From positions 1 to 57,273 of the forward strand of contig WTCA01000015.1 of NCBI GenBank assembly GCA_013138805.1: a stretch of 57,273 bases of DNA. Reading direction: 5' to 3'. Origin of the DNA: an archaeon (GTDB lineage: Archaea > EX4484-52 > GLR71). The translations under genes and the position numbers were made by a program. Below the pieces are notes generated by a model. That model made no database searches and was not told where the DNA came from. It saw only the letters and a list, made by a program, of their open reading frames with translations. Positions 7,948 through 57,117 of the stretch are shown piece after piece (position 1 is the stretch's first letter; every line of letters begins with the position of its first letter).

Positions 7948-7952
7948 TCAAT

Positions 7953-11323: not shown

Positions 11324-11334
11324 AGGTGATGATA

Positions 11335-17257: not shown

Positions 17258-17530
17258 ATGATAACTAAATTCATTACGAAAGGAAAAGGTAAGAGCATGA
17301 AATTTATATCTATAAGAGCTATATTGCTTCTGTTTATTATATGTGGGTCTGTTTTATGTACCATAACTCCTTCAGCTTATGCCTCTGTCGATGATACTAA
17401 GGTCATAGGCGAAATTCCTGCAGGGTTTATTTTGGGTCTGACTGAGAATATCACAATACCTATAGTTATACAACTATTTATTGTAGCTTTTGTGGGGTCT
17501 GTATTATTGATACTTATAATGAAGTTATGA
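17258..17530 (+). CDS. hybrid mini-protein: degenerate leader A + signal peptide + GLTEN anchor module
   Basis: MITKFITKGKGKSMKFISIRAILLLFIICGSVLCTITPSAYA / SVDDTKVIGEIPAGFILGLTENITIPIVIQLFIVAFVGSVLLILIMKL. Confidence 0.75.
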   Translation: MITKFITKGKGKSMKFISIRAILLLFIICGSVLCTITPSAYASVDDTKVIGEIPAGFILGLTENITIPIVIQLFIVAFVGSVLLILIMKL

Positions 17531-38035: not shown

Positions 38036-39145
38036 ATGATGGAATTTGACTTGAGCAAGAAAGCGACTGATGAAAGGTTACATGAATTTGCTGAGAAGAT
38101 ACAGGCTCTGTCTAGACAGATAGGGTTTAAGGTCTCTGCTAGAGGTTGGGCGTACCAGCTTGAGACAGAACGACTGGTCAACAAGGATGAGTTCGACAAG
38201 GTAGAATCTTGGATCAATAGGTGTAGACGAAATGGTATATTGCCTATAGATTTCACTGCTGAGGAAGAGGGCAGAAAATTCAGCGGTGTCGAGGTTCCAG
38301 AATCTAGGTCACCAAAAAAGTATCTGAGGTCATGGATAGACCAGACCATGAGAGCTGAAAAATGGTATGTACCAGATTGGTGGACGGGTGAAAAGTATTA
38401 TATACAGATGCTGGTCGAGAAAGTAGACCTGAAGACATTATTTATGCCTATATGTGAAGAGTTCCATATCCCTATCGCAACCAGCAAAGGTTGGAGCAGT
38501 ATGTTGCAGAGATCTGAATATGCACGGAGATTCAAGGAAGCTGAGGATAAGGGTCTTAAATGTGTCCTGCTATACTGTGGCGATTTTGACCCTGACGGAC
38601 TCAGGATATCTGAGCATATCAGAAAAAATCTATCAGACCTGAAGAACGTGAGATGGGATGATAGGGTACAAGGATACAATCCTAAGAACCTGATAATAGA
38701 GCGGTTCGGTCTTGAGCATGACTTCATACAGAAACATGGACTGACATGGATAGATAACCTGATCACGGGAAGCGGTTGTGAACTGGCAAGAGTTGTAGAC
38801 GGAAAGATCGTTGCAGGTCTGAACAAGAAACATCAACCCCACAAGAATTTTGGTATGATATATCTTCAGGAGTACCTGAAAAATTATGGGGTACGGAAAT
38901 GTGAAGCTAACGCATTGATCGTGTTGCCAGACATAGCCAGAGAGCTGGTGAAAGATACCATAATCGAGTATCTCGGTACAGGCGCACTGGAAAGGTTCGA
39001 TAATAAGAAACAGAATATTGTGGACAGGTTCAATGATTTCAGGGCTAGGTCAGGTCTGCAGGAATCATTGCAGAATGCATTGGACTTGATAGATGAAGAT
39101 GAAGATGACGCTGAGGATGAGGATGAAGATACTTATGAAATGTGA
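38036..39145 (+). CDS. Top6A/Spo11-like Toprim-domain protein (orphan)
   Basis: MLVEKVDLKTLF (Toprim Glu) and LLYCGDFDPDGLRI (DxDPxG) match the Topo VI-A/Spo11 Toprim signature. Acidic tail. Confidence 0.5.
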   Translation: MMEFDLSKKATDERLHEFAEKIQALSRQIGFKVSARGWAYQLETERLVNKDEFDKVESWINRCRRNGILPIDFTAEEEGRKFSGVEVPESRSPKKYLRSWIDQTMRAEKWYVPDWWTGEKYYIQMLVEKVDLKTLFMPICEEFHIPIATSKGWSSMLQRSEYARRFKEAEDKGLKCVLLYCGDFDPDGLRISEHIRKNLSDLKNVRWDDRVQGYNPKNLIIERFGLEHDFIQKHGLTWIDNLITGSGCELARVVDGKIVAGLNKKHQPHKNFGMIYLQEYLKNYGVRKCEANALIVLPDIARELVKDTIIEYLGTGALERFDNKKQNIVDRFNDFRARSGLQESLQNALDLIDEDEDDAEDEDEDTYEM

Positions 39146-42794: not shown

Positions 42795-43124
42795 ATGGTT
42801 TCTATTGCCCGCACAGTTCCCAGACCTAGACATCACCCTAAGACAGCTCTTGACATACCATGCTATGTCATGTTGCTGGCACTCATGGCAGATAGACCTG
42901 ACCTGTGCACCAAGCTGACCGACATGTCCAAGGTGATGGATGTCACCTACTCTCATGTGCAGAGTATCAGGGACAGGCTGATACGTCTGGGCTACGTCAA
43001 CAAGCATAGAGATGGACGGAATGTAGGCATGACACTGACCGTCAGAGGCAAGGCACTGGCTGTCATCTGCAACAGGCTGGTCACTGAACTGACGATTAAA
43101 AAATATAAAGAAAAGCAAAAGTAA
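42795..43124 (+). CDS. winged helix-turn-helix (MarR-like) transcriptional regulator
   Basis: LCTKLTDMSKVMDVTYSHVQSIRDRLIRLGYVNKHRDGRNVGMTLTVRGKAL is the typical wHTH recognition helix plus wing. Confidence 0.7.
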   Translation: MVSIARTVPRPRHHPKTALDIPCYVMLLALMADRPDLCTKLTDMSKVMDVTYSHVQSIRDRLIRLGYVNKHRDGRNVGMTLTVRGKALAVICNRLVTELTIKKYKEKQK

Positions 43125-43136
43125 AGATCAAGACAG

Positions 43137-43307
43137 TCATTTCATTCTTTTCTTGCCCTTGTTCAGGTAGTACATGCCTATGCCTAGTATAGGAAGCACT
43201 ATGAGAACAAAGATACCGTCAGCGACTGTCAGGTTCTCGGTAACGCCAAGGATGATACCGGACGGTATCTCACCTATGGCTTTTGTATCTTCTACGACAG
43301 ATGACAT
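43137..43307 (-). CDS. GLTEN-module mini-protein (56 aa, hand-translated)
   Basis: MSSVVEDTKAIGEIPSGIILGVTENLTVADGIFVLIVLPILGIGMYYLNKGKKRMK. Confidence 0.7.
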   Translation of the reverse strand: MSSVVEDTKAIGEIPSGIILGVTENLTVADGIFVLIVLPILGIGMYYLNKGKKRMK

Positions 43308-43338
43308 GATAGATCACATATAAAGATTAAGATTCTAT

Positions 43339-43375
43339 AAAAAAAAAACAAAAAAGGTCGGGTCTCTGAGACCCG
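43339..43375 (-). terminator. hairpin (CGGGTCTC/GAGACCCG) followed by a long T-tract on the minus strand
   Basis: Directly downstream of the stop of 43386..43562. The minus-strand RNA reads ...CGGGUCUCAGAGACCCGACCUUUUUUGUUUUUUUUUU. Confidence 0.7.
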
Positions 43376-43385
43376 AAAGGTTCAC

Positions 43386-43562
43386 TTATTTTACAAGCTT
43401 ACCTTTCTTTGCATTTCCGTAGAAATACATACCGCCACCGATGACAGCAAGCAGGATACCGAATGTTATTGCTGTACCGATGCTGACATTCTCAGTCATA
43501 CCAAGAATTGCACCTGCTGGGATCTCTCCCAGTGCTTTAGTTCCGTTCAGAGTTTCAGACAT
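43386..43562 (-). CDS. GLTEN-module mini-protein (58 aa, hand-translated), candidate abundant membrane/structural protein
   Basis: MSETLNGTKALGEIPAGAILGMTENVSIGTAITFGILLAVIGGGMYFYGNAKKGKLVK. Has its own TATA region and a strong terminator. Confidence 0.75.
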   Translation of the reverse strand: MSETLNGTKALGEIPAGAILGMTENVSIGTAITFGILLAVIGGGMYFYGNAKKGKLVK

Positions 43563-43622
43563 AGTAGTTCACCAAATATTGCGACTGATCATGAGTCACT
43601 GTATATCAGTTGGGCACCAGAG

Positions 43623-43659
43623 TTTATAAAACAGTATCAGCACTATACTGTTTTATAAA
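43623..43659. promoter_or_regulatory. perfect 15-bp inverted repeat built from two TATA boxes (TTTATAAAACAGTAT-N7-ATACTGTTTTATAAA)
   Basis: Arms at 43623-43637 and 43645-43659. Lies between the mini-protein genes. CAGTAT recurs at 43661-43666. Confidence 0.6.
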
Positions 43660-43670
43660 GCAGTATAGTT

Positions 43671-43832
43671 CTAGCGGTTTCCAGCCCTGTCTTTCCTGCC
43701 CATCAGCAGTATCAGACCACCCACAGCCAATAGTATGATAAAGGTAGCTGTGAACAGGTCGACAGACTCTGTGACACCAGTCATGAACCCACCCACTGTG
43801 TTGCTGAAATCTAGCATGAACGTATTTTCCAT
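43671..43832 (-). CDS. GLTEN-module mini-protein, divergent variant (53 aa)
   Basis: Track ORF 43671..43865. An internal ATG gives MENTFMLDFSNTVGGFMTGVTESVDLFTATFIILLAVGGLILLMGRKDRAGNR. Confidence 0.55.
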   Translation of the reverse strand: MENTFMLDFSNTVGGFMTGVTESVDLFTATFIILLAVGGLILLMGRKDRAGNR

Positions 43833-43895
43833 CTGATACACCTCAAAGAGTAATACCCTTTTCAAAGGATGGTCATTGACCAGCCTTGACCTTTA

Positions 43896-45446
43896 TTATG
43901 ACTTTCTATTAGATGCTTCTGAAAACACGAATATACTGAAACCGATTATGATAGCTAATATACCCATATAGATAGCATCTGATATAGCTAAGTTCTCAGT
44001 CAGACCCAGTATGGCTCCTGCCGGCACCTCACCTATCGCCTTGGTCGCCGTGATGGTGGCTATGGATTCAAGGTATGCCTGATAAGACTGATATTCACTG
44101 GTTACAGCCCTCGTATCTGTGCAGTTGATGTTGCCTGCAGTGTCATTGACGCAGGCATAATATGTATATGACCCATCTGCACCGAATGTCTTGACCGTCT
44201 CAAAGCCAGTCACGGTCTCGTTGGTGCCATTCCAGTTCAGCGTGACTGTATCTATGTCAGCATCTATGACTGACAGGTTGACTGTCATCGAAGCTGTCTG
44301 GACAGTCGAGCTGTCGTCAGGCGTAGGGGCTATGAAATCTATGGTGGGCACTATCGTATCGACAGTGAAATATATGGTCTCATCCTCAACCAGACCCGCA
44401 TAGGTCACTGAATACATATATATCTTATTTATACCTTCAACAGCTGTCAATGTAGAGTTATAGATATCCCACCTGAACCCTGTATCCATATTATAATATT
44501 TATTTCCGCTGAGGAGATAATGATACCCATCAATGTCATACACTGTAGTGTCCAGATACATGCGTGATACTACACCTTCATCTATGTGCCCTGCATCACT
44601 CTGCCATGAGCCTGTTGTACTATTATACATGTATCCTACCGCTACATACGGTGCGAAACTACTGGCTGAAATGAGAAGATATTGGACATCATTGAACTTG
44701 AATGCTTCAGGCTGTGCATAATTGACCCCTGCAGGTGCCTCGGGGCTAGGTCTTATAGAATCATCAGACTGCCAAGCAGTCCCAGTCCAGTTGAAACCAA
44801 ATACATTACTGTCAGACCTATATATGAGCATGTAACTGACATCATCTATATCAAACACTACTGGATCTGCATGCCTTGTGTATGTCCCATAAGCACCATC
44901 TAACCCAGACACTATCGCACTGTCTTCCTGCCAAGAGCTACCAGTCCAGTTATATCCTATAAGATCATTGGTCTCATTGCCTTTTATGAAGTACCATATA
45001 TCTGATATATTGAATACAGTCTGACCTGATGGAACTGTGTTAGATTCATAAGTATAATATGTACCTAGACCAGTCACTATAGCAGTATCAGACAGCCAAG
45101 CTGTCCCAGTCCAGTTATATCCATGAAAACTGCCACCATATCCTTGAATAAGATACTGTGTACTGTCTTTATACAGACCTGTATAACTAGATATATACTG
45201 ACCTGTCACACCTGCCCTCTTAGACTCATCAGCCAGCCACTTGATAGCATAAGTATATTCATTATCGTTAAGCCTATATTTGACATCATCATAGCCTATT
45301 GATGAACTTAGAGATAGAGGTATTGATACAGTACTATAAGATATGTTCTGAGGGCTGTCTATCGTCAATGCAGGCACTGCATACGCAGGCATGGACAGCA
45401 ATAAGATTGCTGTCATAAGAGCAGATAGGACAATGCTATATCTCAT
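43896..45446 (-). CDS. secreted repeat protein (GYNWTG-x-WQSD repeats) with GLTEN anchor, adhesin/receptor-binding-like
   Basis: Signal peptide ends ...SMPAYAVP. About 6 repeats of the F/GYNWTGTAWQSD..I..GL type. C-terminus KAIGEVPAGAILGLTENLAISDA-TM-NRKS. Confidence 0.8.
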   Translation of the reverse strand: MRYSIVLSALMTAILLLSMPAYAVPALTIDSPQNISYSTVSIPLSLSSSIGYDDVKYRLNDNEYTYAIKWLADESKRAGVTGQYISSYTGLYKDSTQYLIQGYGGSFHGYNWTGTAWLSDTAIVTGLGTYYTYESNTVPSGQTVFNISDIWYFIKGNETNDLIGYNWTGSSWQEDSAIVSGLDGAYGTYTRHADPVVFDIDDVSYMLIYRSDSNVFGFNWTGTAWQSDDSIRPSPEAPAGVNYAQPEAFKFNDVQYLLISASSFAPYVAVGYMYNSTTGSWQSDAGHIDEGVVSRMYLDTTVYDIDGYHYLLSGNKYYNMDTGFRWDIYNSTLTAVEGINKIYMYSVTYAGLVEDETIYFTVDTIVPTIDFIAPTPDDSSTVQTASMTVNLSVIDADIDTVTLNWNGTNETVTGFETVKTFGADGSYTYYACVNDTAGNINCTDTRAVTSEYQSYQAYLESIATITATKAIGEVPAGAILGLTENLAISDAIYMGILAIIIGFSIFVFSEASNRKS

Positions 45447-45477
45447 GGTATCTCACTGACTGTATATTTGACACGGC

Positions 45478-45495
45478 TGTTTATAAGGTAGCATC
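45478..45495 (-). promoter_or_regulatory. recurrent promoter motif (minus strand GATGCTACCTTATAAACA)
   Basis: 32 nt upstream of the ATG at 45446. Overlaps the stop codon of 45494..46987. Confidence 0.6.
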
Positions 45496-46987
45496 AGCGT
45501 CTCTTAGACCATGCGGTGTACCCGAATATCCCGAACCCTATGATGGTCAGGATTATGACCGCATTGATGCCGTCTGCCACAGACACGTTCTCAGTCAGAC
45601 CAAGGATCGCTCCGGCAGGCAGTTCACCCAATGCTTTGGTAGAGTCTATGGTGCTCTGCACCTCAGCTTCAGGTATGGTGTCCACAGTGAATGAGACAGA
45701 TGAGTAGCCCATGTCATCTGATGTGTTGGTAGCATAGACGACAATGTCATTGGCACCTTCCTGTGCAGTGATGGTCTTGTTGAGGAATGCCTTGTCCGCT
45801 TCAAGCCATGCCATGCGCAGGTATGTATCAGTATCATCCCAATAGCTGAAATAGATATTGTCATCTGAATCAGTCACAGATGCCAGACCCAAGCCAGTAG
45901 CAGAATCACTGTCCACTGTATTGATAGTCCATGATGCACCATCCCATACAGCCACACTCAGGTTACCTGTCGTCTCAGCCGTAAATCCTATGTATATATT
46001 GTTGTCAGAATCCATGGTCATAGATGAATGATCACCAGATATAGGAGTCACAGTCTCTATGTTCCATGTACCGTTCCACTTAGCGAACTTAAGGTCTGCA
46101 TTGGTGACATCATGGTAACTTATGTAGATATCGCCTTCAGGATGAACTGCAGTAGATGTGATCTCACCTACACTGCCTGTGCTGTCGACAGTCTCAGTGT
46201 TCCATGTACCGTTCCACTTAGCGAACTTGAGGTCAAGGTTGGTAACATCATAGTAGCTTATGTATACCTCGCTGTTATCAGGGCTGGTTGCGATTGACGT
46301 ATATATCCCTACACTGCCTGCGCTGTCCACAGTCTCTATGTTCCAGCTACCGTTCCACTTGGCATATTTAAGGGCAGTATTAGGGGTGTCTCTGTAACTT
46401 ATATGTATGGTGTCATCAGAGTCTATCTCCATAGCAGGATAGTCACCTACATTGCTTGTGCTGTCCACAGTCTCTATGTTCCAGCTACCGTTCCATTTAG
46501 CCAGATTAAGAGTTCCTGCAGTCCCGTCAGTGTAAGCGATATATATGTAATCGTTAGAATCAGTTGCTACTGCACTGAACAGACCGACGTCACCGTCACT
46601 GTCAACAGTCTCCAATGTCCAACTGCCGTTCCATCTAGCTATCTTGAGGTCTCCACCTACACTGTCATAATAGCCTATAAAGACATTACCTTCAGAATCT
46701 GTCGCAATCCCTGTAAATTCCTGCACTTCAGATACATTGTCACCAGTCATGGTAACCCATGTATCTCCTGCTCCTGAATATGTGAACAGGCTGATGTTAT
46801 CTGCATCATTCAATGAATAGTATGCATCACTCAGTGTCTCGTCAGCTGACCAGTTAAGGTCGATTGTCGCATTGTCATAGGTGGTCGCAGTCGGGCTGTC
46901 TATGGTGACAGTCGGGACTGCATATGCAGACATGGACAGTAACATGAATGTTACGAGGATGACAGGCAATATATTACTGTATTTCAT
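45494..46987 (-). CDS. secreted beta-propeller-like repeat protein with GLTEN anchor
   Basis: About 7-8 repeats of ~44 aa (L-K-F/Y-A-K-W-N-G-S/T-W-N-I/T-E-T-V-D-S...Y-I-S-Y). The N- and C-terminal ~60-90 aa are near-identical to 47035..48324. Confidence 0.8.
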   Translation of the reverse strand: MKYSNILPVILVTFMLLSMSAYAVPTVTIDSPTATTYDNATIDLNWSADETLSDAYYSLNDADNISLFTYSGAGDTWVTMTGDNVSEVQEFTGIATDSEGNVFIGYYDSVGGDLKIARWNGSWTLETVDSDGDVGLFSAVATDSNDYIYIAYTDGTAGTLNLAKWNGSWNIETVDSTSNVGDYPAMEIDSDDTIHISYRDTPNTALKYAKWNGSWNIETVDSAGSVGIYTSIATSPDNSEVYISYYDVTNLDLKFAKWNGTWNTETVDSTGSVGEITSTAVHPEGDIYISYHDVTNADLKFAKWNGTWNIETVTPISGDHSSMTMDSDNNIYIGFTAETTGNLSVAVWDGASWTINTVDSDSATGLGLASVTDSDDNIYFSYWDDTDTYLRMAWLEADKAFLNKTITAQEGANDIVVYATNTSDDMGYSSVSFTVDTIPEAEVQSTIDSTKALGELPAGAILGLTENVSVADGINAVIILTIIGFGIFGYTAWSKRR

Positions 46988-47018
46988 AAGGACTCACTGT
47001 ATATATATTTGACATGAG

Positions 47019-47036
47019 TATTTATAAGATAGCATC
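47019..47036 (-). promoter_or_regulatory. recurrent promoter motif (minus strand GATGCTATCTTATAAATA)
   Basis: 32 nt upstream of the ATG at 46987. Overlaps the stop of 47035..48324. Confidence 0.6.
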
Positions 47037-48324
47037 AGCCTCTCTTAGACCATACCGTGAACATGAACATCCCGAAACCTAAGATAACAGCCAGTATGCC
47101 TATACGGATCCCGTCTGCCACAGACACGTTCTCAGTCAGACCAAGGATCGCTCCGGCAGGCAGTTCACCCAATGCCTTGGCAGAGTCTATGTTGCTCTGC
47201 ACCCCAGTATCAAGGATGGCGTCCACAGTGAATGAGACAGATGAGTAGCCCATGTCATCTGATGTGTTGGTAGCATAGATGACCACTGTATTCTGTCCTT
47301 CAATACCAGTTATTGTTGTATTGATAAAATTATAATCAAGAGATTGTGTAATATTATATCCTTTAAATGTTCCTGTATAATCCAATGATAAAAAATACAT
47401 CGTATCATTCAGTTCATAGATAACTGGTGATGTGTATATATTTGCTGTTGCAAGACCTCCAATAATAGCCGTATCGCTCTGCCAAGATGTACCTGTCCAA
47501 TTATATCCATAAAAATTGCCACTAGATTCACCTGATATAAGATACCAGTACCCATTCATCTCAAATACATTGGGTGTTGAAATTTGACCAATATCACTAA
47601 GTCCATTTACGATAGCAGTATCGCTTTGCCATGTATTGCCTGTCCAATTATAACCATTGAAAGTACCAGCTTGGTTACCTTGAATTGCATACCATACATT
47701 ATCTTTCTCAAATACAGTTATTGCACTGTTAGTTGAACTGGATATCCCACTTATCACAGAAGAATTGGTCTGCCATATAGTCCCATTCCATGTAAAGCCA
47801 TATCTTGTTGCACCGTCACCAGTACCCATTATCATGTGCAACTGACTGTCCCAATAAAAAGTTTCTGGAACAGCCGAACTTCTACCACCGATTAAACTAT
47901 AAAGACCGTTATCTATGCTACCATTAAGTTGCCATACAGCCCCATCCCATGTAAGTGCATCTTTAGTGGAATCCAGACCACCGTATAAAAAACCCCCAAG
48001 AATAAGATGCCATTGACTGCCATAATAAAATACCGTTCCAGATTGTTGTGCATTTGCGACCATGCTACTGAGGATATAATCATCGCTTGTCCAATTACCT
48101 GTATATATTAAATTTCCTTCAGCTAAACTGACATTGCTGGCATCATTCAATGAATAGTATGCATCACCTAAGGTCTCGTCAGCTGACCAGTTAAGGTCGA
48201 TTGTCGCATTGTCATATGTGGTCGCAGTCGGGCTGTCTATGGTGACAGTCGGGACTGCATATGCAGACATGGACATTAACATGAATGTTGCGAAGATGAC
48301 AGGCAATATATTACTGTATTTCAT
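47035..48324 (-). CDS. secreted repeat protein (YNWTG-x-WQSD repeats) with GLTEN anchor
   Basis: Same ends as 45494..46987, but the core is of the 43896..45446 repeat type. Confidence 0.8.
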   Translation of the reverse strand: MKYSNILPVIFATFMLMSMSAYAVPTVTIDSPTATTYDNATIDLNWSADETLGDAYYSLNDASNVSLAEGNLIYTGNWTSDDYILSSMVANAQQSGTVFYYGSQWHLILGGFLYGGLDSTKDALTWDGAVWQLNGSIDNGLYSLIGGRSSAVPETFYWDSQLHMIMGTGDGATRYGFTWNGTIWQTNSSVISGISSSTNSAITVFEKDNVWYAIQGNQAGTFNGYNWTGNTWQSDTAIVNGLSDIGQISTPNVFEMNGYWYLISGESSGNFYGYNWTGTSWQSDTAIIGGLATANIYTSPVIYELNDTMYFLSLDYTGTFKGYNITQSLDYNFINTTITGIEGQNTVVIYATNTSDDMGYSSVSFTVDAILDTGVQSNIDSAKALGELPAGAILGLTENVSVADGIRIGILAVILGFGMFMFTVWSKRG

Positions 48325-48356
48325 AAAAATCCCTGTACGATATATTTATTGTCTAT

Positions 48357-48374
48357 CATTTATAAGGTAGCATC
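48357..48374 (-). promoter_or_regulatory. recurrent promoter motif (minus strand GATGCTACCTTATAAATG)
   Basis: About 33 nt upstream of the ATG at 48324. Immediately downstream of the stop of the 48377 gene. Confidence 0.6.
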
Positions 48375-48376
48375 AA

Positions 48377-50863
48377 TCACTTAAACACCAGCAGGAATCC
48401 ACCTATGACCAGTCCCATGACCACTATGGCGACCGCAAGGTTAGTGTTCTCGACAATGCCTGTCACCAGACCGCCTGCTTTGGCAGTGGCATCATATCCC
48501 TTGCTGTGCGTCAGTATGGTCTCAGGGATGAATATGGTCAGGTTACGTGCATTGCTGACTGTACCTGTACCGAACTCGTCCCTGCACTGTCCCACAGCGC
48601 TCCAGACATCACCGTACCCAGTGCTACCCGATGGTATGGTGACCAGATTAACTGACGTGTCAGGCAACATGAATCCTGACCCAGACAGGGATCCCACCAC
48701 TGCACCGTTCCTTGTCACGTTCCATACAGCAGTCAGCAATGCACCCGCATCTGCGTCAGTGCAGTGCATGTGCAGGTATATGTTATTGTATGTGTATGCC
48801 GTATCATTGTCGAACGGGTCGAACGCTATGTCTGTCATCGCAAACGCAATGATCTCGGCAGGACTGTTGATTATATATGTATAGTCAGATATGTCGACAG
48901 GACTGATGTCTGTACCGTCACCGCAGGTCGTATACGCCCTGACAAACTGACTGCCACTGAATGTATGTTCAGGCACTGTCTTGACCAGTGTGGACTCGCT
49001 GTCATTGACTGTCATGCTACCCGACAGGTCAGGCAATAACGATATGCCTGCATAGATGTCCCAGTAAGCTGTCAATGTCTCCCCAGAATCTGAGTCTGAG
49101 CATGTCACGGTCAGGTTCAGAGTCTCATTGTTATACATGCTGTCAGGGTACAGGTCATTCTCAGATACCACAGGCACTGCATTGACGACAGTGAAATCAT
49201 ATAGTGCACTGGATGACTGGTGCCCTGCAGTATCATTGACGTAGTACCTGTAATAGACGATGTCGCCCTTGGCATATCCCGTATGGCTCATGACATGCCA
49301 GTATTCGTCCACTGAATATGTCAAGATCGTGTAATTGGTCGTCTGGTTGTACTCGAACAGGACAGTGTCTATGTCAGTCTCTATGACGGTCACGTTGAAC
49401 ATAGTATCTTGGTCAGTGGTGGGTGTGGCATTGATGGTCACTGCAGACAAGACTGGATATGTATTGTCTATCCTCATGGTACTGCTTAATATATCTGATG
49501 ATACTGCGATGCCGTCGGTCACGTTGGCAAGGACATAATAGTCAGCGTCTGGCACAGTATTCGTATCCCATTCATAGTAGCAGGTACCGTAGCTGGCGTT
49601 CAGCTCAAACACGGACAGGATCGTCCTGTTCGGGCTGAGGTCATCGTTCAGAAGATAGTAACTGCAATTTACCCAGTCCTGATTAGGGTCTGACACAGTC
49701 GTGTTGATCCATATGATGCCTGTCTCGGATATGCCCGTACCTGAGTATATGGTAGGAAACCCACCCCTGACACTGTCGGTATGCAACGTGAGTGCAGGTG
49801 GCAGGTTATCCAGCTGTCCTATCAGGTCATATATGACTTCGCCGGCATTATTATATACAGTGTCATTGACCTTGACCCTGAACTCACCCTGAAACCCGTT
49901 AAAGAATGTCAGGTGATGATTGCCACAGGATCCGGTCACGTCATTCCAAGTGACACCGTAATCTGCAGATAACTGATACTTGTCAGGGCATGAGATACCA
50001 TCGGTAGCCCAGACATCCCAGCTCTGTTCAAGGTTATTGGCATTGAAGCTGGTACCGATAGCATACATGGTATCTGTCACCTCGATGCCGTTGAAGGTGC
50101 CATTCTCGTCAGTGACGAAATTGAGGTTGTAATATGTCCCTTCATCATACAGGTCACCCACGCTGACTGCATCAGCAGGTGTGCAGACATCACTCAGCCT
50201 TACGTCTCCTGTGACATATGACTTATTGCATCCGTACACCACAAAGTCTATGGCTGTGGACACTGAGTTCTCGTCCGCCTGAAACCTGAACACGTAACTT
50301 GTATTGGCTGACACGGTCACGTTATTGATCTGCACCTTGACTATGTTACCCTGATACGCATTGATGGATGTGTCCTTGGATACGTTATCGGGATGAAAAT
50401 TGAATGTGGTCGGCATCCATTCATGAGCACCGGTCAGGTTAAGGCTGACCCGCACTGTCGTATTGTCAGGATTGCCCGCCACGAAACCGCAGTCCTTGTT
50501 GAGCCACCCGTCACTGTCCAGTGCAGGGTTCAGTGACCCGTTGATGAAAGACCAGTTGGCTTGGTATGAGTCTATGATGTCATATGCACGGTATGATACA
50601 CTGCATGACGACAGGTCTAGGTTAGGATCTGACAGGTTCCATCTAGCGTACAGCCCGCCCGTGACCGTCTCGTTCAGGTCGATGGGTGAATAGTAATGAT
50701 CTGTAAGGGCATAGTCAGATATGACAGGTGCAGTATTGTCCACCTCTATGCTGTAATATTCAGTCTGAGTATTGAGACCTCCTATGACTATGGCAGAGGC
50801 TGATGAAGACAATGACAGTAATACTATCAGGCTGACTGCTAAATATATAGTCATCTTATCCAT
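48377..50863 (-). CDS. large secreted surface protein with divergent GLTEN-like anchor
   Basis: Track ORF 48377..50872 (GTG). ATG at 50863. Signal peptide ends ...SSSASA. C-terminus KAGGLVTGIVENTNLAVAIVVMGLVIGGFLLVFK. Confidence 0.75.
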   Translation of the reverse strand: MDKMTIYLAVSLIVLLSLSSSASAIVIGGLNTQTEYYSIEVDNTAPVISDYALTDHYYSPIDLNETVTGGLYARWNLSDPNLDLSSCSVSYRAYDIIDSYQANWSFINGSLNPALDSDGWLNKDCGFVAGNPDNTTVRVSLNLTGAHEWMPTTFNFHPDNVSKDTSINAYQGNIVKVQINNVTVSANTSYVFRFQADENSVSTAIDFVVYGCNKSYVTGDVRLSDVCTPADAVSVGDLYDEGTYYNLNFVTDENGTFNGIEVTDTMYAIGTSFNANNLEQSWDVWATDGISCPDKYQLSADYGVTWNDVTGSCGNHHLTFFNGFQGEFRVKVNDTVYNNAGEVIYDLIGQLDNLPPALTLHTDSVRGGFPTIYSGTGISETGIIWINTTVSDPNQDWVNCSYYLLNDDLSPNRTILSVFELNASYGTCYYEWDTNTVPDADYYVLANVTDGIAVSSDILSSTMRIDNTYPVLSAVTINATPTTDQDTMFNVTVIETDIDTVLFEYNQTTNYTILTYSVDEYWHVMSHTGYAKGDIVYYRYYVNDTAGHQSSSALYDFTVVNAVPVVSENDLYPDSMYNNETLNLTVTCSDSDSGETLTAYWDIYAGISLLPDLSGSMTVNDSESTLVKTVPEHTFSGSQFVRAYTTCGDGTDISPVDISDYTYIINSPAEIIAFAMTDIAFDPFDNDTAYTYNNIYLHMHCTDADAGALLTAVWNVTRNGAVVGSLSGSGFMLPDTSVNLVTIPSGSTGYGDVWSAVGQCRDEFGTGTVSNARNLTIFIPETILTHSKGYDATAKAGGLVTGIVENTNLAVAIVVMGLVIGGFLLVFK

Positions 50864-50868
50864 GTATA

Positions 50869-52989
50869 TCACTCAAGCTTGCATCTTTCTCCTACAGCCA
50901 CGTCACAGTATGCTGTGCTGGTATATATGACATGATACTGTACAGTCTCAATATATGTTATCGGGAACCCTGTACCCAATAGGTCTTCAAAGTCTATGTA
51001 CCAGTCACGCCATATGAAATGACCAGTACCAGTATCTCTCACAGTCATCAATGATTTCGGTATAGCAAAACCGAACAGGACATCTGTGGCAGGTCTGTCA
51101 AATTCCATATTGAAAACATACTCACCGTTACCTGTATCATATATGCCTGCAGTCACATTGAAATTGGTCACCTGTGCAGGTGTCAGGACATGATATTCAC
51201 CGCCTGAATAATACCCAAAATAGATCTTCTTGCACACTGCACCCTTGCAGAAATTGATGCCGTCTATCTGGATATCATAGGTCAGACCACACAGGTCACC
51301 GTAAGTATGATCATCCGTCGCAGACAGCTCAACCGTGTAATCACCGTCATCCCAACCACTCGTATCTATGACATGCCCGAAACTGAATATGGTGGTGTTC
51401 CAGTCATCGGTGTAATTGCTGTGCTTGACCGCATCGTACTGGTCAGTCACGTTGAGGAGTATACGGTACAGGTTAGCGTCATTGACTGATGCGTCCCATG
51501 TCACGCTGTCCGCCACGACTGTGCTGTTGTCATAGGCTGGATATGAACCCAGTGTCCAGTCTGGATATACGGTATCGATGGTGACATTGTAATATGCAGA
51601 CCATGAACCGTAACCGTTACCTAGAGTATCATTGGCTCTGACATGCCAGTGATACAGACCGTCACCCAGCTCGTCCACGGCTGTCAGTGCATTGTACAGG
51701 TCATAGATGCTATCTATGTCAGTGGTTATGTTGCCCGCCTCAAAACCGGTGCTGTTGGATACCTGCAACTGATATGCGTCCACACTGGTCTGGTCATATG
51801 GCTGTGTCCAAGTAAAGTTAGTCTGGTTGACATTGGTATGGTCAGTGTCATAGGGCAACAGGTTGACCGGCATTGCCGGTGGCAATGTATCCACGCTGAA
51901 ATGTACAGTGGCAGATATGTTCTGGTTGTCAGCCGTGTCATTGCACATGAAATATACCTGATGACTGCCCTGTGTCATGGTAGAGTTCTCACCGTAATAA
52001 TCGTCACCGTACCCAGCGTAAGGCAGGTGTATGTAGCCAACACTGTCAAGGTCATACCAGCAGGTGTCCAAGTTGATGTCTATGGCGGTCACGTTAAAGG
52101 CGATTGTGGTTGACGGGTATGTCGTGTTGAACGGTGAATTGACGGTCAGTACAGGATATATTGTATCTACTGTCAGCGTATATGCACCTGACCAGCTACC
52201 AAAACCGTTACCCTCAGTATCATTGGCACGGACTCGCCAATGATAGATGCTGTCGTCTAACGATTCAGGAGCAGTCACTGTATAATCACTGTCTGATATG
52301 TCATCCCTGTCAAGGGTCAGGTTACCAGCCTCAAACCCTGTGCTGTTAGATACCTGCAACTGATACACGTCAATGCCTGTCCTGTCATACGGTTCAGTCC
52401 AGTCAAGATATGGCGTGTCAGTATTGATGAGAGACCCGTTATCTGGCGATACCAATACGGGCGCTTCAGGAGGTGCAATGTCTGGAGGGCGTGTGACATC
52501 AAGATATATATGGTCATAACTCACACTGACACCTATCATGTATGCCTGAACTTCCAAGCCGTTCAGCTCTGAGCCAGTATCGACACTGCAGTTGCCTGTC
52601 AGGTTGCAGGAGTACAGTCCAGTAAAGCCCACTGCAGTCATACAAGACCCGCACTGGCTATGTGACCCAGTCACATTCGTATATATATATGTGTAAGCAT
52701 TCGGGTGCGTAAAATCAATCTCGACGTATATCATGACTGATGGCAATACCTCTCCTGCTTCGACGGTACCGTTCCAACCATGGACTGTTATGTTCTCACT
52801 GTCAGCAAGAGAGTACAGGACACCATCTGACTGGTTGACTCTAGATGTCACATCAGTTGCACCACCGTCATAGGCTGTCGCATCGGTAGGTATCCATGTC
52901 TCAGATACTGCCATGACAGGGTAGGATAGTGACAGGATAGCTAAGGCTACTATGACATAGACCCATCGTGATCTTGATACCCTGTACAT
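50869..52989 (-). CDS. large secreted protein with duplicated ~100-aa Ig/FN3-like modules
   Basis: Track ORF to 52992 (TTG). The ATG at 52989 is preceded by GAGGTGA. The YQLQVSNSTGFEAGN...YHWRVRANDTEGNGFGSWS module occurs twice. No TM anchor. Confidence 0.75.
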   Translation of the reverse strand: MYRVSRSRWVYVIVALAILSLSYPVMAVSETWIPTDATAYDGGATDVTSRVNQSDGVLYSLADSENITVHGWNGTVEAGEVLPSVMIYVEIDFTHPNAYTYIYTNVTGSHSQCGSCMTAVGFTGLYSCNLTGNCSVDTGSELNGLEVQAYMIGVSVSYDHIYLDVTRPPDIAPPEAPVLVSPDNGSLINTDTPYLDWTEPYDRTGIDVYQLQVSNSTGFEAGNLTLDRDDISDSDYTVTAPESLDDSIYHWRVRANDTEGNGFGSWSGAYTLTVDTIYPVLTVNSPFNTTYPSTTIAFNVTAIDINLDTCWYDLDSVGYIHLPYAGYGDDYYGENSTMTQGSHQVYFMCNDTADNQNISATVHFSVDTLPPAMPVNLLPYDTDHTNVNQTNFTWTQPYDQTSVDAYQLQVSNSTGFEAGNITTDIDSIYDLYNALTAVDELGDGLYHWHVRANDTLGNGYGSWSAYYNVTIDTVYPDWTLGSYPAYDNSTVVADSVTWDASVNDANLYRILLNVTDQYDAVKHSNYTDDWNTTIFSFGHVIDTSGWDDGDYTVELSATDDHTYGDLCGLTYDIQIDGINFCKGAVCKKIYFGYYSGGEYHVLTPAQVTNFNVTAGIYDTGNGEYVFNMEFDRPATDVLFGFAIPKSLMTVRDTGTGHFIWRDWYIDFEDLLGTGFPITYIETVQYHVIYTSTAYCDVAVGERCKLE

Positions 52990-53019
52990 CAACTTTCACC
53001 TCTTTCGTCCTTTCAATCG

Positions 53020-53424
53020 TCAGCCTTCATCTCTCCGAAGATACCTGTCTGGCGGTCTGTCCTGTTGCCTGTCTTCATACACAGGTTCCGGTTCCGGTTC
53101 AGCCACTTCATCATCACCGTCAGACATCCGTTTAAGTCTCTCTATCAGGTTTTGGTCTATCCAGTCCACACCTTGCATTACTATAGGATATATGTTCAAT
53201 ATAGCTTTAATGCCCCTGTAATATACCCAGAAGAATAGGTATATCATCCCCAGTGCGACTGCTATGACAGTTATCAATATGATCCAGTACGCCAGTGACG
53301 TGACAAAGAAAGACACTGCCTGCGTAGATGTCTGGATGAATGTTGACAGTGAATCAAAAGATGTACTGACCGCCTTGAAGCTCAGGTCACTCACTGTCAC
53401 ATTGTCAATAGCCATATTTGACAC
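53020..53424 (-). CDS. membrane protein
   Basis: 134 aa with 2 TM helices and a PEPEP tail. Confidence 0.6.
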   Translation of the reverse strand: MSNMAIDNVTVSDLSFKAVSTSFDSLSTFIQTSTQAVSFFVTSLAYWIILITVIAVALGMIYLFFWVYYRGIKAILNIYPIVMQGVDWIDQNLIERLKRMSDGDDEVAEPEPEPVYEDRQQDRPPDRYLRRDEG

Positions 53425-53430
53425 CCCTCG

Positions 53431-54249
53431 TCATCTCTGTGTCATCCTCTTGGACAGGAACCTGACGCCTATCAGGATAGATAACAGCAGTGCAGGGAAC
53501 AGGATGTACTTGACCAGTATGAGCAGTATGGTTATGGTCACATAATATACCAGTGCCACTATGTTGATCAGGTACTGGCTTATCTTCTGGATGATGACCA
53601 GCCAGCTGTTGACCGTCTTCTTCTGGCAGACTAGGACGCTCTCTGACGCATCAAACACTGAGTAGTCATATATAGAATCCTTGACTGTGTATATGACTTC
53701 AAGGGTGACATCATAGTGGGGGACGAACAGGCAGAAATCTGAGCTGATACCATTTGCGTCAGGCAACGGTAACTGATAAGCCATGTAATAACTGCCCGTG
53801 CTGGCATATGTAGATCCCTGAGATATGTCTATCACATATTTCGCAGACATACCGCACCTGATATATACAGGATTGTACACAGACGTGTTATAGGTACCTG
53901 TACTGTCCGTGAACTTGAACAGCACCAGCCTGTTCTTGCCGGTCACGTCCATGACTATGAACTGATATGGCGGTGCGGATATCAGTGTATCATTGGCGAT
54001 CTCATTGGCACCAAAGTCATATACTGTGTCACCCGTACCACTGAATACCATGGCAAGGTCAAACAGCCAGTCATACTCGTCATATGTCCGTGCTATGCTG
54101 TCCAGCGAGTCGTCGTCTATGTACTCAGCAGACTCATTGAACGGCGTGGCATAGACTGATGTGGCTGAGGCTGACAATGACAGCAGTATGATGAACAGCA
54201 ATGCTGTGACAGTATATGATCTTTTTGTTACATCTTTAAATGTTATCAT
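53431..54249 (-). CDS. membrane protein (signal anchor + C-terminal TM pair)
   Basis: 272 aa. ATGA overlap with the upstream gene. Confidence 0.65.
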   Translation of the reverse strand: MITFKDVTKRSYTVTALLFIILLSLSASATSVYATPFNESAEYIDDDSLDSIARTYDEYDWLFDLAMVFSGTGDTVYDFGANEIANDTLISAPPYQFIVMDVTGKNRLVLFKFTDSTGTYNTSVYNPVYIRCGMSAKYVIDISQGSTYASTGSYYMAYQLPLPDANGISSDFCLFVPHYDVTLEVIYTVKDSIYDYSVFDASESVLVCQKKTVNSWLVIIQKISQYLINIVALVYYVTITILLILVKYILFPALLLSILIGVRFLSKRMTQR

Positions 54250-54959
54250 ACCAATACCCCCTGCAACGTAGTCCAGCCCTCGATTAGCACCTTGATGACG
54301 ACAGCCAGTATGATCGCCTTGCCTAGACCCTGACCAGTACCTACCATGACACCTATCACGGCAAGGAGCAGGAATATCTGAAGCGCTGACTTATACTCGT
54401 TGTAATAATACCTGAACGGATTGACCGTCGCCTCATCAATGCTGAAGTCATATGAATATATGCCCTTGTCAAGCACGTCCAGCTCACCCACGACAATCTG
54501 CTGTGTCAATGAGCTGATGTCAGGTGTCTGGTTATATGCCACCCACCTATAACTGCCTTTGATCAGGTATGTGTCATAGGTACCGAAAGATGATATGTTG
54601 ACGCAGGACTGACCATCCCTGTATATGTTGTGGTACGCTTCCTGCGGTGTGTATTCCTTGGTGAAGTTAAGTGACAGTAGCTTACCTATGCTCTTGCCCC
54701 AGTCATACCCGTCATCATATGCATCCACGTCAGGAGCTACTCTCTTGATGAACACGATGTCCATGAAATCGTTGTAATAAGGTCTGTCTCTCAGCTCGGA
54801 CATGTTGACAGATGACGCATTGACGACGTAGCCGTATACGCAGATCTCAGTGTAGTTGGCGTCTGTGACACCTGTCGACACTGCTGACACTGTGCATGGC
54901 ATCATAATGGTCAGTGCCAGTATCATAAGACCTATGACTATCAGATTATACCTTGACAT
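54246..54959 (-). CDS. secreted/membrane protein
   Basis: 237 aa. Signal peptide ends ...CTVSAVS. C-terminal TM helices. Confidence 0.65.
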   Translation of the reverse strand: MSRYNLIVIGLMILALTIMMPCTVSAVSTGVTDANYTEICVYGYVVNASSVNMSELRDRPYYNDFMDIVFIKRVAPDVDAYDDGYDWGKSIGKLLSLNFTKEYTPQEAYHNIYRDGQSCVNISSFGTYDTYLIKGSYRWVAYNQTPDISSLTQQIVVGELDVLDKGIYSYDFSIDEATVNPFRYYYNEYKSALQIFLLLAVIGVMVGTGQGLGKAIILAVVIKVLIEGWTTLQGVLV

Positions 54960-54960
54960 A

Positions 54961-57117
54961 TCAGATCCGACCTCCCTTTTTCCTGAACAGGTTGAACAGG
55001 TCGATAAAGATGTAGAATATTGTCACCAGCAACGCAATCGAAAATATTATCATCATTATGTTGGCAAAGGGTGACCACAGCACCGAGTCGACGTACAGTA
55101 TGGTGGCATGTATCTCCTCAGCCCAGTATACGTTATCGCTCTCCACACAGGTCGATCTTCGGTATACCTTGGGCACTGCCTCATGGCAAGTGTTGATATC
55201 CACGCAGGTCTGGGTCTTCTGACTATTGACGCAGTCTGACCATTGCGTACATTCATACTGTGGCTGGCATGTGGTGTACAATATATAGGTCTGCAGGTCA
55301 CCTGACCCTACCAGAGACGTATTGATGCCAGTCACAGGGTCATATCCTTCAACATCACAGGTCTGCGTGGTGTCTGGCTTATATATCTCAGTACCGCAAG
55401 CGTTCAGGTCAGTGACTGTCCGTGTCTGGATACCCAGCGAGCACAGGCTCCATGCACCAGTGTACCAGTTTTCAGTGCAGGTCAATGGCGACACAGTATC
55501 TACCTTAGATGTCGAGTATACCGTGAACCCTGTAGACCCTGCAAATAGCATGTCCTGATTTTCAGTCAAAGGTTCCACTATGTTATATTCACCGTCCAGA
55601 TTGGTATTGAGTCCTACATTGGGCAGAGACAGGTACCCTGCTACATGCTCAGGGAAATCCTCGTAACCGACAGTGTACCTGTATATGATTATACCCTCAT
55701 CATTCTGGAATATGACCTCTGGTATGTTACCGAACATGGTCGACTTGCCCATTGTAGAGATGTCTGTGAGCGTTATCGTCATGCTACCTGAATATACACC
55801 GCCGTAAATCATGTTATAATTATTGTCATCAGTGATAAATGATATCTCGGCACCGTCTGAACGCACGTCAAAGTTATCGACATCTATATTGTTATATGTC
55901 ACCTGCGGTTCATATATGTCTGCACCTATTATTGTCTCTGAAAGGTTATTGTATACGTCATCCACCTTGACAGATATCAGTCCTGACTTGGCAAGGCTAT
56001 CTATATAGAACAGAAAATTGACCTCTGAATAACCATCAAAATTAGTGTCGCCTACACCCACACCGTAGATGCCTTCCAGATAATCTGCACTGACATTGCC
56101 TGACTCAGTGAACTCAAATATCTGGCTGATCGTACTTGAGCTTATCCTGTATCCGTACACACCGCACAGTGCCCCCAGACTGTAATTCTCGCACATGGAA
56201 TATATCACGTCAACATAGTCATAATCGACGAACTTACCTATGTCTGCACCTGTTATGACACCGCCCTGAGCTATATACGGCAGGACTGGTATAGTATCAT
56301 TGGACTGCTCGACAAGGCTGGTATCCAACAGTGCCACGTTACCGCTCGTCACACCTACCTGTGCATCTCCAGTATGAACTATTATCACGTTGTCATCATA
56401 GTTATCATATATGAGATTGATGATGCCTGTGTAATCTGAATTGACCTTATTGACCAGCCCTGTAGCCTTGTCTACCCTTGCCACTGTAGTAGATGTCGCA
56501 TAGTATAGGTACCCTGAATCCTGTGACCCGTCAATGCTGACCAGACCAGTCACAGGCACTGAGTACAGTTCTTCCAGCTGATATGACGAGAACCGTGAAG
56601 GCTCATCTTCGTCTGTCTGGATATATGCCAGTATATTGATGTGACCATCACCAGTCTGAGGTTCTGCAGATGATATAGATACATGAGCATAACTGCCATC
56701 TGTCGTAATCATGTCAAATACATTATATTGCGTGTTGCAGTTGCTCAGGGTTATATCCCAATCTACCTGAGTCAGCAGGCTATCGTTTATATTTGAGCCT
56801 ATGACCTTATCTGTAATAGGTAAGCTACCGAAAGATATATGGTTCATCAGAGATACATTAAGCATGTCCAGATGCCGATTAGCAGAGCATCCGCCTGTCC
56901 TAAGTATCTGAAACGAGAAGTCATCAATGCTATCAGAATCTATATCAAAATAATATACAGATGTAGTGGTCGCCAGATTGATATCTGAATGTATATCTAT
57001 GTCTCCGTACAGATAGCCTACATCAATGGATGCAGACCCGACAGGACATATCATGAGAAGTATCAATAATGCCACAAAAAATGATTTACATACATTGGAT
57101 GTCATGACGATAACCAT
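54961..57117 (-). CDS. large surface protein: FG-GAP/VCBS-like Ca-binding loops, two Cys-rich TSP1-like repeats, C-terminal TM anchor
   Basis: Signal peptide ends ...CPVGSA. DIDSDSIDD and DTNFDGYSE loops. CTENWYTGAWSLCSLGIQTRTVTDLNACG and CTQWSDCVNSQKTQTCVDINTCH repeats. A TM helix and RKKGGRI tail. Confidence 0.7.
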   Translation of the reverse strand: MVIVMTSNVCKSFFVALLILLMICPVGSASIDVGYLYGDIDIHSDINLATTTSVYYFDIDSDSIDDFSFQILRTGGCSANRHLDMLNVSLMNHISFGSLPITDKVIGSNINDSLLTQVDWDITLSNCNTQYNVFDMITTDGSYAHVSISSAEPQTGDGHINILAYIQTDEDEPSRFSSYQLEELYSVPVTGLVSIDGSQDSGYLYYATSTTVARVDKATGLVNKVNSDYTGIINLIYDNYDDNVIIVHTGDAQVGVTSGNVALLDTSLVEQSNDTIPVLPYIAQGGVITGADIGKFVDYDYVDVIYSMCENYSLGALCGVYGYRISSSTISQIFEFTESGNVSADYLEGIYGVGVGDTNFDGYSEVNFLFYIDSLAKSGLISVKVDDVYNNLSETIIGADIYEPQVTYNNIDVDNFDVRSDGAEISFITDDNNYNMIYGGVYSGSMTITLTDISTMGKSTMFGNIPEVIFQNDEGIIIYRYTVGYEDFPEHVAGYLSLPNVGLNTNLDGEYNIVEPLTENQDMLFAGSTGFTVYSTSKVDTVSPLTCTENWYTGAWSLCSLGIQTRTVTDLNACGTEIYKPDTTQTCDVEGYDPVTGINTSLVGSGDLQTYILYTTCQPQYECTQWSDCVNSQKTQTCVDINTCHEAVPKVYRRSTCVESDNVYWAEEIHATILYVDSVLWSPFANIMMIIFSIALLVTIFYIFIDLFNLFRKKGGRI

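Follow-up and report, generated by a model that had tools for sequence, protein, structure and literature searches.

We analysed the entire 57,273-bp contig WTCA01000015.1 (assembly GCA_013138805.1), referred to below as the window, which represents a family of mobile, probably archaeal DNA elements sampled in marine-sediment and cold-seep metagenomes. On the minus strand between positions 43137 and 43865, three consecutive small open reading frames (ORFs) of 53, 58, and 56 amino acid residues, here designated m3, m2, and m1 in reading order and together called the minis, lie next to genes for large secreted proteins that we regard as adhesins. We found that the minis are not an isolated family, but free paralogs of the C-terminal anchors of these adhesins. 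The three genes are as follows; the module classes A and B are defined below.

43137 to 43307, minus strand: m1, 56 residues, ..TKAIGEIPSGIILGVTEN followed by a transmembrane (TM) helix and KGKKRMK; free-standing class A module.
43386 to 43562, minus strand: m2, 58 residues, MSETLNGTKALGEIPAGAILGMTEN followed by a TM helix and KKGKLVK; free-standing class A module.
43671 to 43832, minus strand: m3, 53 residues, MENTFMLDFSNTVGGFMTGVTES followed by a TM helix and GRKDRAGNR; free-standing class B module.

We compared the window with five further metagenomic lineages from which contigs were recovered (L001/L002/L003, L007/L008, L009, L011, and L014). The original prediction described three consecutive minus-strand ORFs of 53 to 58 residues that were too short for the ORF track or mis-started. 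All three were present, and the mis-start concerned m3: its listed start is a TTG at 43865, giving 64 residues, and the start in 6/6 lineages is the ATG at 43832 (MENTF...), exactly where the conservation begins. The prediction also assigned to all three a single layout that included the motif GLTEN. The layout is indeed common to them: a 25-residue N-flank that is acidic (net charge -2 to -4) precedes a single hydrophobic stretch of 19-22 residues, and the C-flank is basic (+3 to +5). The literal GLTEN occurs in none of them; the variants are GVTEN in m1, GMTEN in m2, and GVTES (GGFMTGVTES) in m3.

The sole hydrophobic segment of the minis lies within residues 26-47, each mini having one hydrophobic window of at least 19 residues, and signal peptides are lacking. 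Because of the positive-inside rule, the basic tails are predicted to lie in the cytoplasm or interior, and the acidic, sequon-bearing N-terminal parts of 25 residues outside. The minis would thus be type-III, single-helix membrane proteins with the N-terminus outside and the C-terminus inside, the same orientation as that predicted for the adhesin tails after Sec export. The N-glycosylation sequons of m2 were found at N6 in 5 of the 6 lineages scored and at N25 in 4 of 5. An AlphaFold2 model of m2, built from an alignment of 11 sequences, consists of a single helix at residues 16-52 with a disordered N-terminus; the predicted local distance difference test (pLDDT) score is 69.5, and 86-89 in the TM part.

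A pilin-like subunit had been proposed as an equally good explanation of the minis. We rejected a type IV pilin, as the minis have no N-terminal class III signal peptide, their N-termini are acidic, the hydrophobic helix is C-terminal, and no pilin family in Pfam matched. Another ORF, of 62 residues, overlaps m2 on the opposite strand (43441-43629, plus strand). Similar antisense ORFs lie over other copies of the module in the window and in its relatives, and the substitutions fit the m2 frame; we therefore rejected the antisense ORF as a gene and consider it a by-product of the codon pattern of the module.

In the alignment, the class A module is a C-terminal segment of about 50 residues with the consensus TKAxGE(I/L/V)P(A/S)GxILGxTEN, a TM helix, and a basic tail. 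A DNA pattern for G-x-T-E-N with its context gave 6 matches in the window, where 0.12 were expected: m1, m2, the last ~50 residues of the 516-, 497-, and 429-residue proteins, and an ORF of 90 residues at 17258-17530. The genes of these 516-, 497-, and 429-residue proteins, which are secreted, lie just upstream of the trio on the same strand. A full HMMER scan added a 220-residue protein (11326-11988) to the carriers of the module. The modules outside the trio, including the class B tail of an 831-residue protein, are as follows.

43896 to 44057, minus strand: class A tail of the 516-residue secreted protein (gene 43896 to 45446).
45494 to 45652, minus strand: class A tail of the 497-residue secreted protein (gene 45494 to 46987).
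47035 to 47193, minus strand: class A tail of the 429-residue secreted protein, a lectin-like beta-propeller protein (gene 47035 to 48324).
48377 to 48502, minus strand: class B tail (..KGYDATAKAGGLVTGIVENTNLAV followed by a TM helix and K) of the 831-residue secreted protein (gene 48377 to 50872); the fused counterpart of m3.
17258 to 17530, plus strand: protein of 90 residues, in which a signal-peptide-like N-terminus is followed directly by the class A module; its ortholog in a relative is P0014.
11326 to 11988, plus strand: secreted protein of 220 residues (P0018) with a class A module of the GLSEN variant at its end (11836 to 11988).

In profile comparisons with hhalign, m3 matched the tails of the 831-residue protein and its orthologs of 799-1524 residues (..KAGGLVTGIVENTNLAV..) with a probability of 95.8% (E 7e-9), and its match to class A was weak (probability 27-36%). 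There are thus two tail classes, each with a free-standing mini version, namely m1 and m2 for class A and m3 for class B. In the six loci scanned, we found 25 class A modules, and all were C-terminal. Their invariant core is G-E-[ILV]-P-[AS]-G-x-[IV]-L-G-x-[TS]-[ED]-N. The strongest conservation lies in this external juxtamembrane motif and not in the TM core, which suggests a specific protein-protein contact. The conserved motif comprises about 18 residues and is also found in proteins without signal peptides.

The tripartite architecture, in which many secreted paralogs of each genome end, could be taken for a sorting signal of the PGF-CTERM/PEP-CTERM kind, recognised by a processing, lipid-attaching, or glycosylating enzyme, with the minis as minimal substrates, decoys, or primers. 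The Asn of the TEN motif, which lies within an N-x-S/T sequon in 19/25 modules, fits such a signal; on the other hand, the sequon is lost in every module of L007, including m2, and the minis have no signal peptides. NCBIfam gave no family for any of the eight module-bearing proteins and no known CTERM sorting domain, nor did Pfam give a CTERM match, and the minis and the module profile had no match in NCBIfam, Pfam, PHROGs, PDB sequence profiles, or Foldseek. A word-indexed search of 5.8 billion proteins gave 8 relatives. An exhaustive search of 1.84 billion representative proteins gave 14 module matches, of which 13 were genuine and C-terminal and the other, P0019, was a low-scoring repeat protein and spurious; the module was absent from cellular proteomes, and all matches that we traced to a contig belong to this element family. 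As the module is this rare and is borne by the element, a host sorting signal is unlikely. A pattern scan of the GTDB genomes also gave a number near chance (41 stretches against about 20 expected by our own estimate) with one weak tail match. No protein in the window has more than three hydrophobic segments and could be the polytopic enzyme, although an enzyme encoded by the host is conceivable. We consider the sorting-signal explanation decidedly improbable.

In all lineages, the trio closes a block of genes for secreted proteins at its 3' end, in the constant order m3, m2, m1. In four lineages, the ratio of nonsynonymous to synonymous substitutions (dN/dS, Nei-Gojobori method) was 0.02-0.09 for m2 (dS 0.5-1.2), 0.06-0.10 for m1, and 0.06-0.45 for m3. 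The first residues (MSETLNG, MENTF, and MSS[VI]V), the start codons, and the ribosome-binding sites were conserved in the six lineages. The minis are genuine genes under purifying selection. The m2 protein is 91-98% identical between lineages and is the most conserved protein of the element; the other proteins of its block showed 36-76% identity in L001 and 38-55% in L007. Orthologs of m1 were found in all lineages with 73-95% identity. In two variant contigs that co-occur in the source samples, and which like all our lineage data are low-coverage metagenome contigs, m2 differed at two sites, both synonymous third-codon positions, and its 5' untranslated region (UTR) differed by about 22 substitutions and 11 indels, with identical promoter boxes. 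The extreme conservation of m2 would fit a densely packed major subunit.

The orthologs of m1 formed one cluster and those of m2 another, and the m1 cluster was distinct from the tails of the large proteins. In L007, all three large tails clustered with the m2 of the same lineage (65-72% identity), having TENVGIGTAI in common, and in L011 a protein of 282 residues ended with the YGNxKKGK tail of m2. Where the anchor-bearing genes lie with respect to the trio also varied: they are found upstream of it in the window and in L007, past m1 in L001, and inside the trio, between m3 and m2, in L011. Within the window, the 497- and 429-residue genes (45494-48373, minus strand) are almost the same in their promoters, in their signal peptides, and over the first ~60 and last ~90 residues, and their cores are unrelated, with two types of repeat, one modelled and one presumed propeller. 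These observations suggest an exchange of cassettes around a constant anchor, that is, a recombinational swapping of receptor-binding domains.

Exchange of this kind, together with the homology to adhesin 3' ends, would also be expected if the minis were non-functional remnants or silent cassettes, duplicated adhesin 3' ends kept as recombination donors. However, dN/dS is far below 1 over the full length of the minis, their starts, ribosome-binding sites, and first residues are kept, m2 has signals of its own (see below), and we found no invertase or recombinase and no flanking inverted repeats. The pattern of selection and the genes' own expression signals in effect rule out silent cassettes, an explanation that we find scarcely credible.

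A promoter-like box of 15 nt, ATRCTRYYTTATAWA / ATGCTAYCTTATAAA, was found at 12 sites in the window, against 0.33 expected.

Plus strand: promoter-box sites at 8384, 9998, 12843, 24998, 26765, and 43645.
Minus strand: promoter-box sites at 43623, 43652, 45480, 47021, 48359, and 57144.

The box precedes the starts of the 516-, 497-, 429-, and 718-residue genes by about 40 nt and is also found before several blocks on the plus strand. Its conserved block is contiguous with a TATA-like element, as a transcription factor B recognition element (BRE) and TATA pair would be, and no conserved element was found 17 bp upstream of the TATA-like element, where a bacterial -35 box would lie. The 15-nt box thus looks like an archaeal BRE/TATA unit. 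The following elements surround m2.

43609 to 43637, minus strand: proximal promoter of m2, consisting of ATACTGTTTTATAAA (a variant of the box) and then the nearly invariant CTCTGGTGCCCAAC.
43568 to 43573, minus strand: GGTGAA ribosome-binding site of m2, present in 6/6 lineages, 5-8 nt before the ATG.
43639 to 43672, no strand assigned: palindrome around the second TTTATAAA, with a forward box at 43652-43666 (minus strand) and a reverse box at 43645-43659 (plus strand).
43339 to 43376, minus strand: terminator-like element that follows m2; its hairpin (43358-43376) has a G+C-rich stem of 8 bp and a loop of 3 nt, and T6GT10 (43339-43357) comes next.
42795 to 43124, plus strand: gene of a putative winged-helix regulator with a weak match to HTH_27 of Pfam, convergent with and adjoining m1.

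The original prediction of a double-TATA palindrome upstream of m2 was borne out, as both the palindrome and a second TTTATAAA box are present. The box occurs three times before m2, twice in the forward and once in the reverse direction, and these jointly make the palindrome; TTTATAAA is also present at the second box (43623-43637), 29 nt downstream of the TTTATAAA in the palindrome. The proximal box and CTCTGGTGCCCAAC are nearly invariant in the six lineages, and the UTR behind them is variable. The palindrome is kept in 6/6 lineages, with changes in its arms that are partly compensating (position 6 is a G-C pair in two lineages, A-T in three, and G-T in one). The palindrome may serve as a bidirectional promoter or an operator, or it may form the hairpin at which the m3 transcript ends. 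The reverse box points away from m2, and the equivalent arm is a canonical ATGCTAC box in L009, L011, and L014; transcription from the reverse box could yield an antisense RNA complementary to m3 and the 3' end of the 516-residue gene. A convergent small gene lies at the position of the winged-helix regulator gene in L007, L009, and L011, with a product 26-42% identical to that of the window, and it adjoins m1 in every lineage whose contig extends that far; the regulator is a candidate binder of the m2 palindrome.

The hairpin and T-tract after m2 had been called the clearest terminator in the window, and the calculated free energy agrees with this: the window contains 26 T-runs of at least six nucleotides, and the hairpin here (-12.4 kcal/mol) was the strongest at any of them. 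This terminator-like element was compared in L001, L007, L009, and L014. A hairpin and a T-run follow m2 with different stems in L001, L007, and L014, and the stem of L009 is near-identical. The claim that each mini has its own TATA boxes was correct in part only: m2 has a clear, conserved promoter, and m3 and m1 do not. The m3 gene starts 30 nt past the stop codon of the 516-residue gene, has GAGGTG as its ribosome-binding site, and lacks a TATA box in the window; the m3 of L014 has a promoter box of its own. Upstream of m1 we found only a T-rich TATAG element that overlaps the m2 terminator, plus a conserved ATGTGAT just before the ATG.

In the reading that we favour, tentatively and at slightly less than even probability, the minis are single-helix subunits that co-assemble with the adhesin tails, and m2 is the bulk subunit. 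The conserved juxtamembrane segment and the TM helix would constitute an assembly module. The free minis would pack side by side in the membrane, m2 being made abundant by its own tandem promoter and terminator, and would make up most of a coat, envelope, or patch embedded in the membrane. Into this array of minis the adhesins would be incorporated by means of the identical module and thereby display their ectodomains, and the basic tails would face inside, towards the cytoplasm or the DNA. Co-assembly, abundance, and presence in a particle are points that we infer. The original prediction regarded a tiny hydrophobic protein with strong signals as a major coat or envelope protein; this is a reasonable proposal, and what stands of it is that the minis are selected, expressed-looking TM genes and that the signals of m2 are conserved. 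Since m1, m2, and m3 are free copies of the adhesin anchor, the likely mechanism moves from a coat protein to an assembly or anchor module shared in free and fused form. On the present evidence, the leading candidate for the principal building block of a particle or surface structure is m2.

A different and rather doubtful reading takes the module for a C-terminal polymerisation helix of a new kind. In this case m2, with m1 and m3 as minor or specialised subunits, would build the coat or envelope lattice or the filament of an unrecognised archaeal virus-like lineage for which no capsid protein is known, and interchangeable lectin and immunoglobulin (Ig) cassettes fused to the same helix would diversify host recognition.

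The minis might instead be accessory partners that mimic the anchor, bind the TM and juxtamembrane parts of the adhesins, and chaperone, cluster, gate, or down-regulate them in the manner of small TM regulators. The one-to-one correspondence of tail classes and minis (A with m1 and m2, B with m3) and the constant location of the minis at the 3' end of the adhesin block speak for such partners, and the residues common to m2 and the large tails in L007 could be a co-evolving interface. However, m2 is far more conserved than any adhesin tail or ectodomain and stays constant while the set of adhesins changes completely, and its tandem promoter and terminator suggest a high output and not that of a regulator. 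We therefore regard accessory partners as unlikely.

Several points weigh against co-assembly as we propose it. The high conservation of m2 and its strong promoter could equally be those of an immunity protein or of an abundant regulator. The m2 model is moderate in confidence (pLDDT 69.5), and a single helix is expected of any TM peptide. A Pfam and PHROG screen of 78 proteins of the window detected no capsid, portal, terminase, or packaging ATPase; as no particle hallmark of any other kind was found in the window either, the formation of a particle is assumed. No indexed RNA run holds the region, and we located no transcript or peptide data. Finally, our knowledge of the element family comes from only some six metagenomic lineages, all sequenced at low coverage.

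The same screen of 78 proteins bears on two further explanations, as it detected no conjugation ATPase, lytic enzyme, prepilin peptidase, assembly ATPase, or secretin-like, VirB4/CedB-like, Zot/pI-like, or Rep protein. First, the minis could be holin-like peptides, or act in lysis or superinfection exclusion, by making the host membrane permeable or by modifying it. They have a small size, one TM segment, and a highly charged C-terminus, and they lie at the end of a late-looking block with strong expression signals on one of them. No lytic enzyme gene was detected in the screen, no holin family matched, and the homology to anchors and the extreme conservation of an external motif are unexpected of holins; this explanation is very improbable. 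The minis could also be the major subunits of a filament or pilus-like polymer of the host cell and not of a virion, tipped or decorated by the adhesins, which might serve cell contact and the transfer of the element; the principle would be that of modular type IV pilins or of pVIII and pIII in inoviruses, with the assembly helix at the C-terminus. In size, charge layout, and single long helix they match inovirus coat proteins (Pf3 and fd), and an ArdC-like gene and other plasmid-type genes are present in the window, where capsid genes were not detected. As no gene of an assembly ATPase or of a secretin-like, VirB4/CedB-like, Zot/pI-like, or prepilin-peptidase protein was detected and the minis lack a class III signal peptide, we consider such a filament improbable.

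If co-assembly of minis and adhesins is true, it would provide a candidate major structural protein and a principle of assembly for a family without recognisable capsid, portal, terminase, or conjugation genes. The free anchor helix and the adhesin cassettes would exchange by recombination, so that receptor domains are swapped and the membrane subunit remains invariant. What is new in this study is that anchor modules of two classes are related across their free and fused forms, and that m2 is extremely conserved and has expression signals dedicated to it. The element family is rare, being essentially without relatives among billions of database proteins, and the 18-residue motif and the gene order m3-m2-m1 are sharp markers with which more members could be found in sediment metagenomes.

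The block at 43137-57117, to which the minis belong, encodes only secreted or membrane proteins. N-x-S/T sequons occur in its minus-strand secreted proteins (43896-57117) at 2.56 per 100 residues, against 0.33 in the block at 27-42 kb, and the enrichment over shuffled sequences is two- to three-fold (z up to 8). This suggests that the secreted proteins of the block are N-glycosylated surface proteins. An AlphaFold2 model of the 429-residue protein shows a signal peptide, a beta-propeller (pLDDT 70-90), an Ig-like domain, and a tail helix; in its tail, the TM helix is preceded by a short helix of its own at AGAIL, modelled with low confidence. The best Foldseek matches of the propeller were lectins of fucose and other sugars and propellers of the GH43 type. 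The 497-residue protein has repeats of the type WNGxWxxETVDS with weak matches to propeller repeats of Pfam, which suggests a beta-propeller here as well.

The contig has no terminal repeats or circular overlap and no tRNA genes. Its genes recognisable by Pfam and PHROGs are ArdC-like, a Dam-type methyltransferase, YopX, GNAT, a topoisomerase-like gene (phrog_6247), DUF7447, and DUF5661. No relatives were found by megablast and tblastn among deposited phage and archaeal virus genomes, nor among IMG/VR and JGI metagenome contigs, and tblastn against plasmids gave only chance matches to TM segments. With the 369-, 237-, and 497-residue proteins as probes for integrated copies or hosts, we obtained nothing, or an uninformative bacterial propeller. 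In PDB searches with the 421-residue NTPase-like protein and the intein-bearing 1075-residue protein of L011, the only match was to an intein endonuclease.

The topoisomerase-like protein of the window (38036-39145, plus strand) matches phrog_6247 with an E value of 2e-69. Its homolog in L011 (13557-16784, minus strand; 61% identity over 178 residues) has 1075 residues and contains intein-splicing and LAGLIDADG domains, and a protein of L007 (12151-14301, minus strand) has weak similarity (24% identity) and a borderline LAGLIDADG match. The LAGLIDADG inteins of the relatives resemble an intein endonuclease of Thermococcus. The weak tail match of the GTDB scan lies in a metagenome-assembled genome of Aenigmatarchaeota (JBHIDR010000010.1, L010, 4805-10150), where a surface protein of 1781 residues ends in ..GAILGVTEN, a TM helix, and KGKKKR. 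The same protein has a cysteine-rich WxxC..G.QTRT motif, like the 718-residue protein of the window. As the search was biased by the pattern, the match could be due to chance, or it could be a hint of the host lineage. An archaeal host is likely because of the promoter type, the enrichment of sequons, the LAGLIDADG inteins, and the occurrence of this sole genomic tail match in Aenigmatarchaeota.

Two other groups of genes were observed elsewhere in the window. In the first 27 kb (73-26754, plus strand), 30 of the 48 genes start with one of two near-identical N-terminal peptides, M(T)TRF(I/M)TKG(K/R)GxGRKVIP(L/M)KD in 20 genes and MVR(R/K)F(K/R)SDAQRKAVMSK in 10, and the remainders of the proteins differ. 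Of ten tagged proteins scanned, one reached the Pfam cut-off (DUF5661, gene 23078-23611), and a DUF7417 match (8686-9189) was below it. The tagged gene family also fills the start of the L001 contig (L012). The N-termini look like a tag for targeting, packaging, or cleavage that the members of a large and diversified family have in common, and this may be more unusual than the trio of m1 to m3. The second group consists of three small paralogs (4696-4872, 4961-5215, and 7944-8207, plus strand), whose signal peptides resemble those of lipoproteins and end in (S/A)GC; cysteine-rich TSYDSC..DC motifs come next.

Among known systems, the coat proteins of inoviruses (Pf3, and pVIII of fd/M13) resemble the minis in having 44-58 residues, an acidic N-terminus outside, one hydrophobic helix, and a basic C-terminus inside; the resemblance to the Pf3 and fd sequences is one of design only. 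The Pf3 coat protein inserts with the N-terminus outside and without a signal peptide. Several tiny coat proteins also lie beside a large receptor-binding protein (pIII) that is held by a C-terminal helix. However, there is no sequence similarity, and whereas inovirus genomes are 5-20 kb, the element has 57 kb and archaeal-type promoters, with no Zot/pI ATPase or rolling-circle Rep detected. Moreover, the inovirus coat protein is not homologous to the pIII anchor, whereas the free and fused modules here are clear paralogs.

Like the module, the PGF-CTERM/PEP-CTERM domains form the very C-terminus of numerous secreted paralogs in a genome and combine a signature motif with a TM helix and a basic cluster. 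The archaeosortase/exosortase systems differ in that we found no hidden Markov model match, no cognate enzyme in the window, and no host proteins with the motif. Modular type IV pilins assemble through one short hydrophobic helix, which is found both in an abundant small subunit and in rarer subunits fused to adhesin or lectin domains. The polarity is opposite, as the helix lies at the C-terminus in the minis; the polymerisation-helix reading would thus amount to the modular pilin principle with inverted polarity in a 57-kb DNA element. In pleolipoviruses, the small membrane protein VP3 and the spike VP4, which has a signal peptide and a C-terminal TM anchor, are encoded side by side. These viruses differ in having genomes of 7-17 kb and in that VP3 and the anchor of VP4 are not paralogs, and VP3 and VP4 have no sequence similarity to the minis.

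The major capsid proteins (MCPs) of spindle-shaped viruses (VP1 and VP3 of SSV1/SSV19, SMV1, thaspivirus, and the itzamnavirus of ANME-1) are small, very hydrophobic, and alpha-helical, with N-glycosylation sites (PMC9894754, PMC10866085). Their genes often occur as neighbouring paralogs next to large genes for receptor binding, within what is called the structural arm of the large archaeal virus genomes of marine sediment (PMC9894754, PMC10866085). The proteins have two hydrophobic helices that form a hairpin (PMC10866085). We rejected an MCP of this type for the minis, which have one hydrophobic segment and a single predicted helix, not a hairpin of two helices. Compared with known MCPs, the minis had no PHROG, no PDB profile match, and no tblastn match in phage or archaeal virus genomes. 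The minis belong to none of these families; they are closest in design to the coat proteins of inoviruses and closest in genomic setting to the small hydrophobic capsid or membrane proteins encoded beside spike genes in spindle-shaped and pleomorphic archaeal viruses (PMC9894754, PMC10866085).

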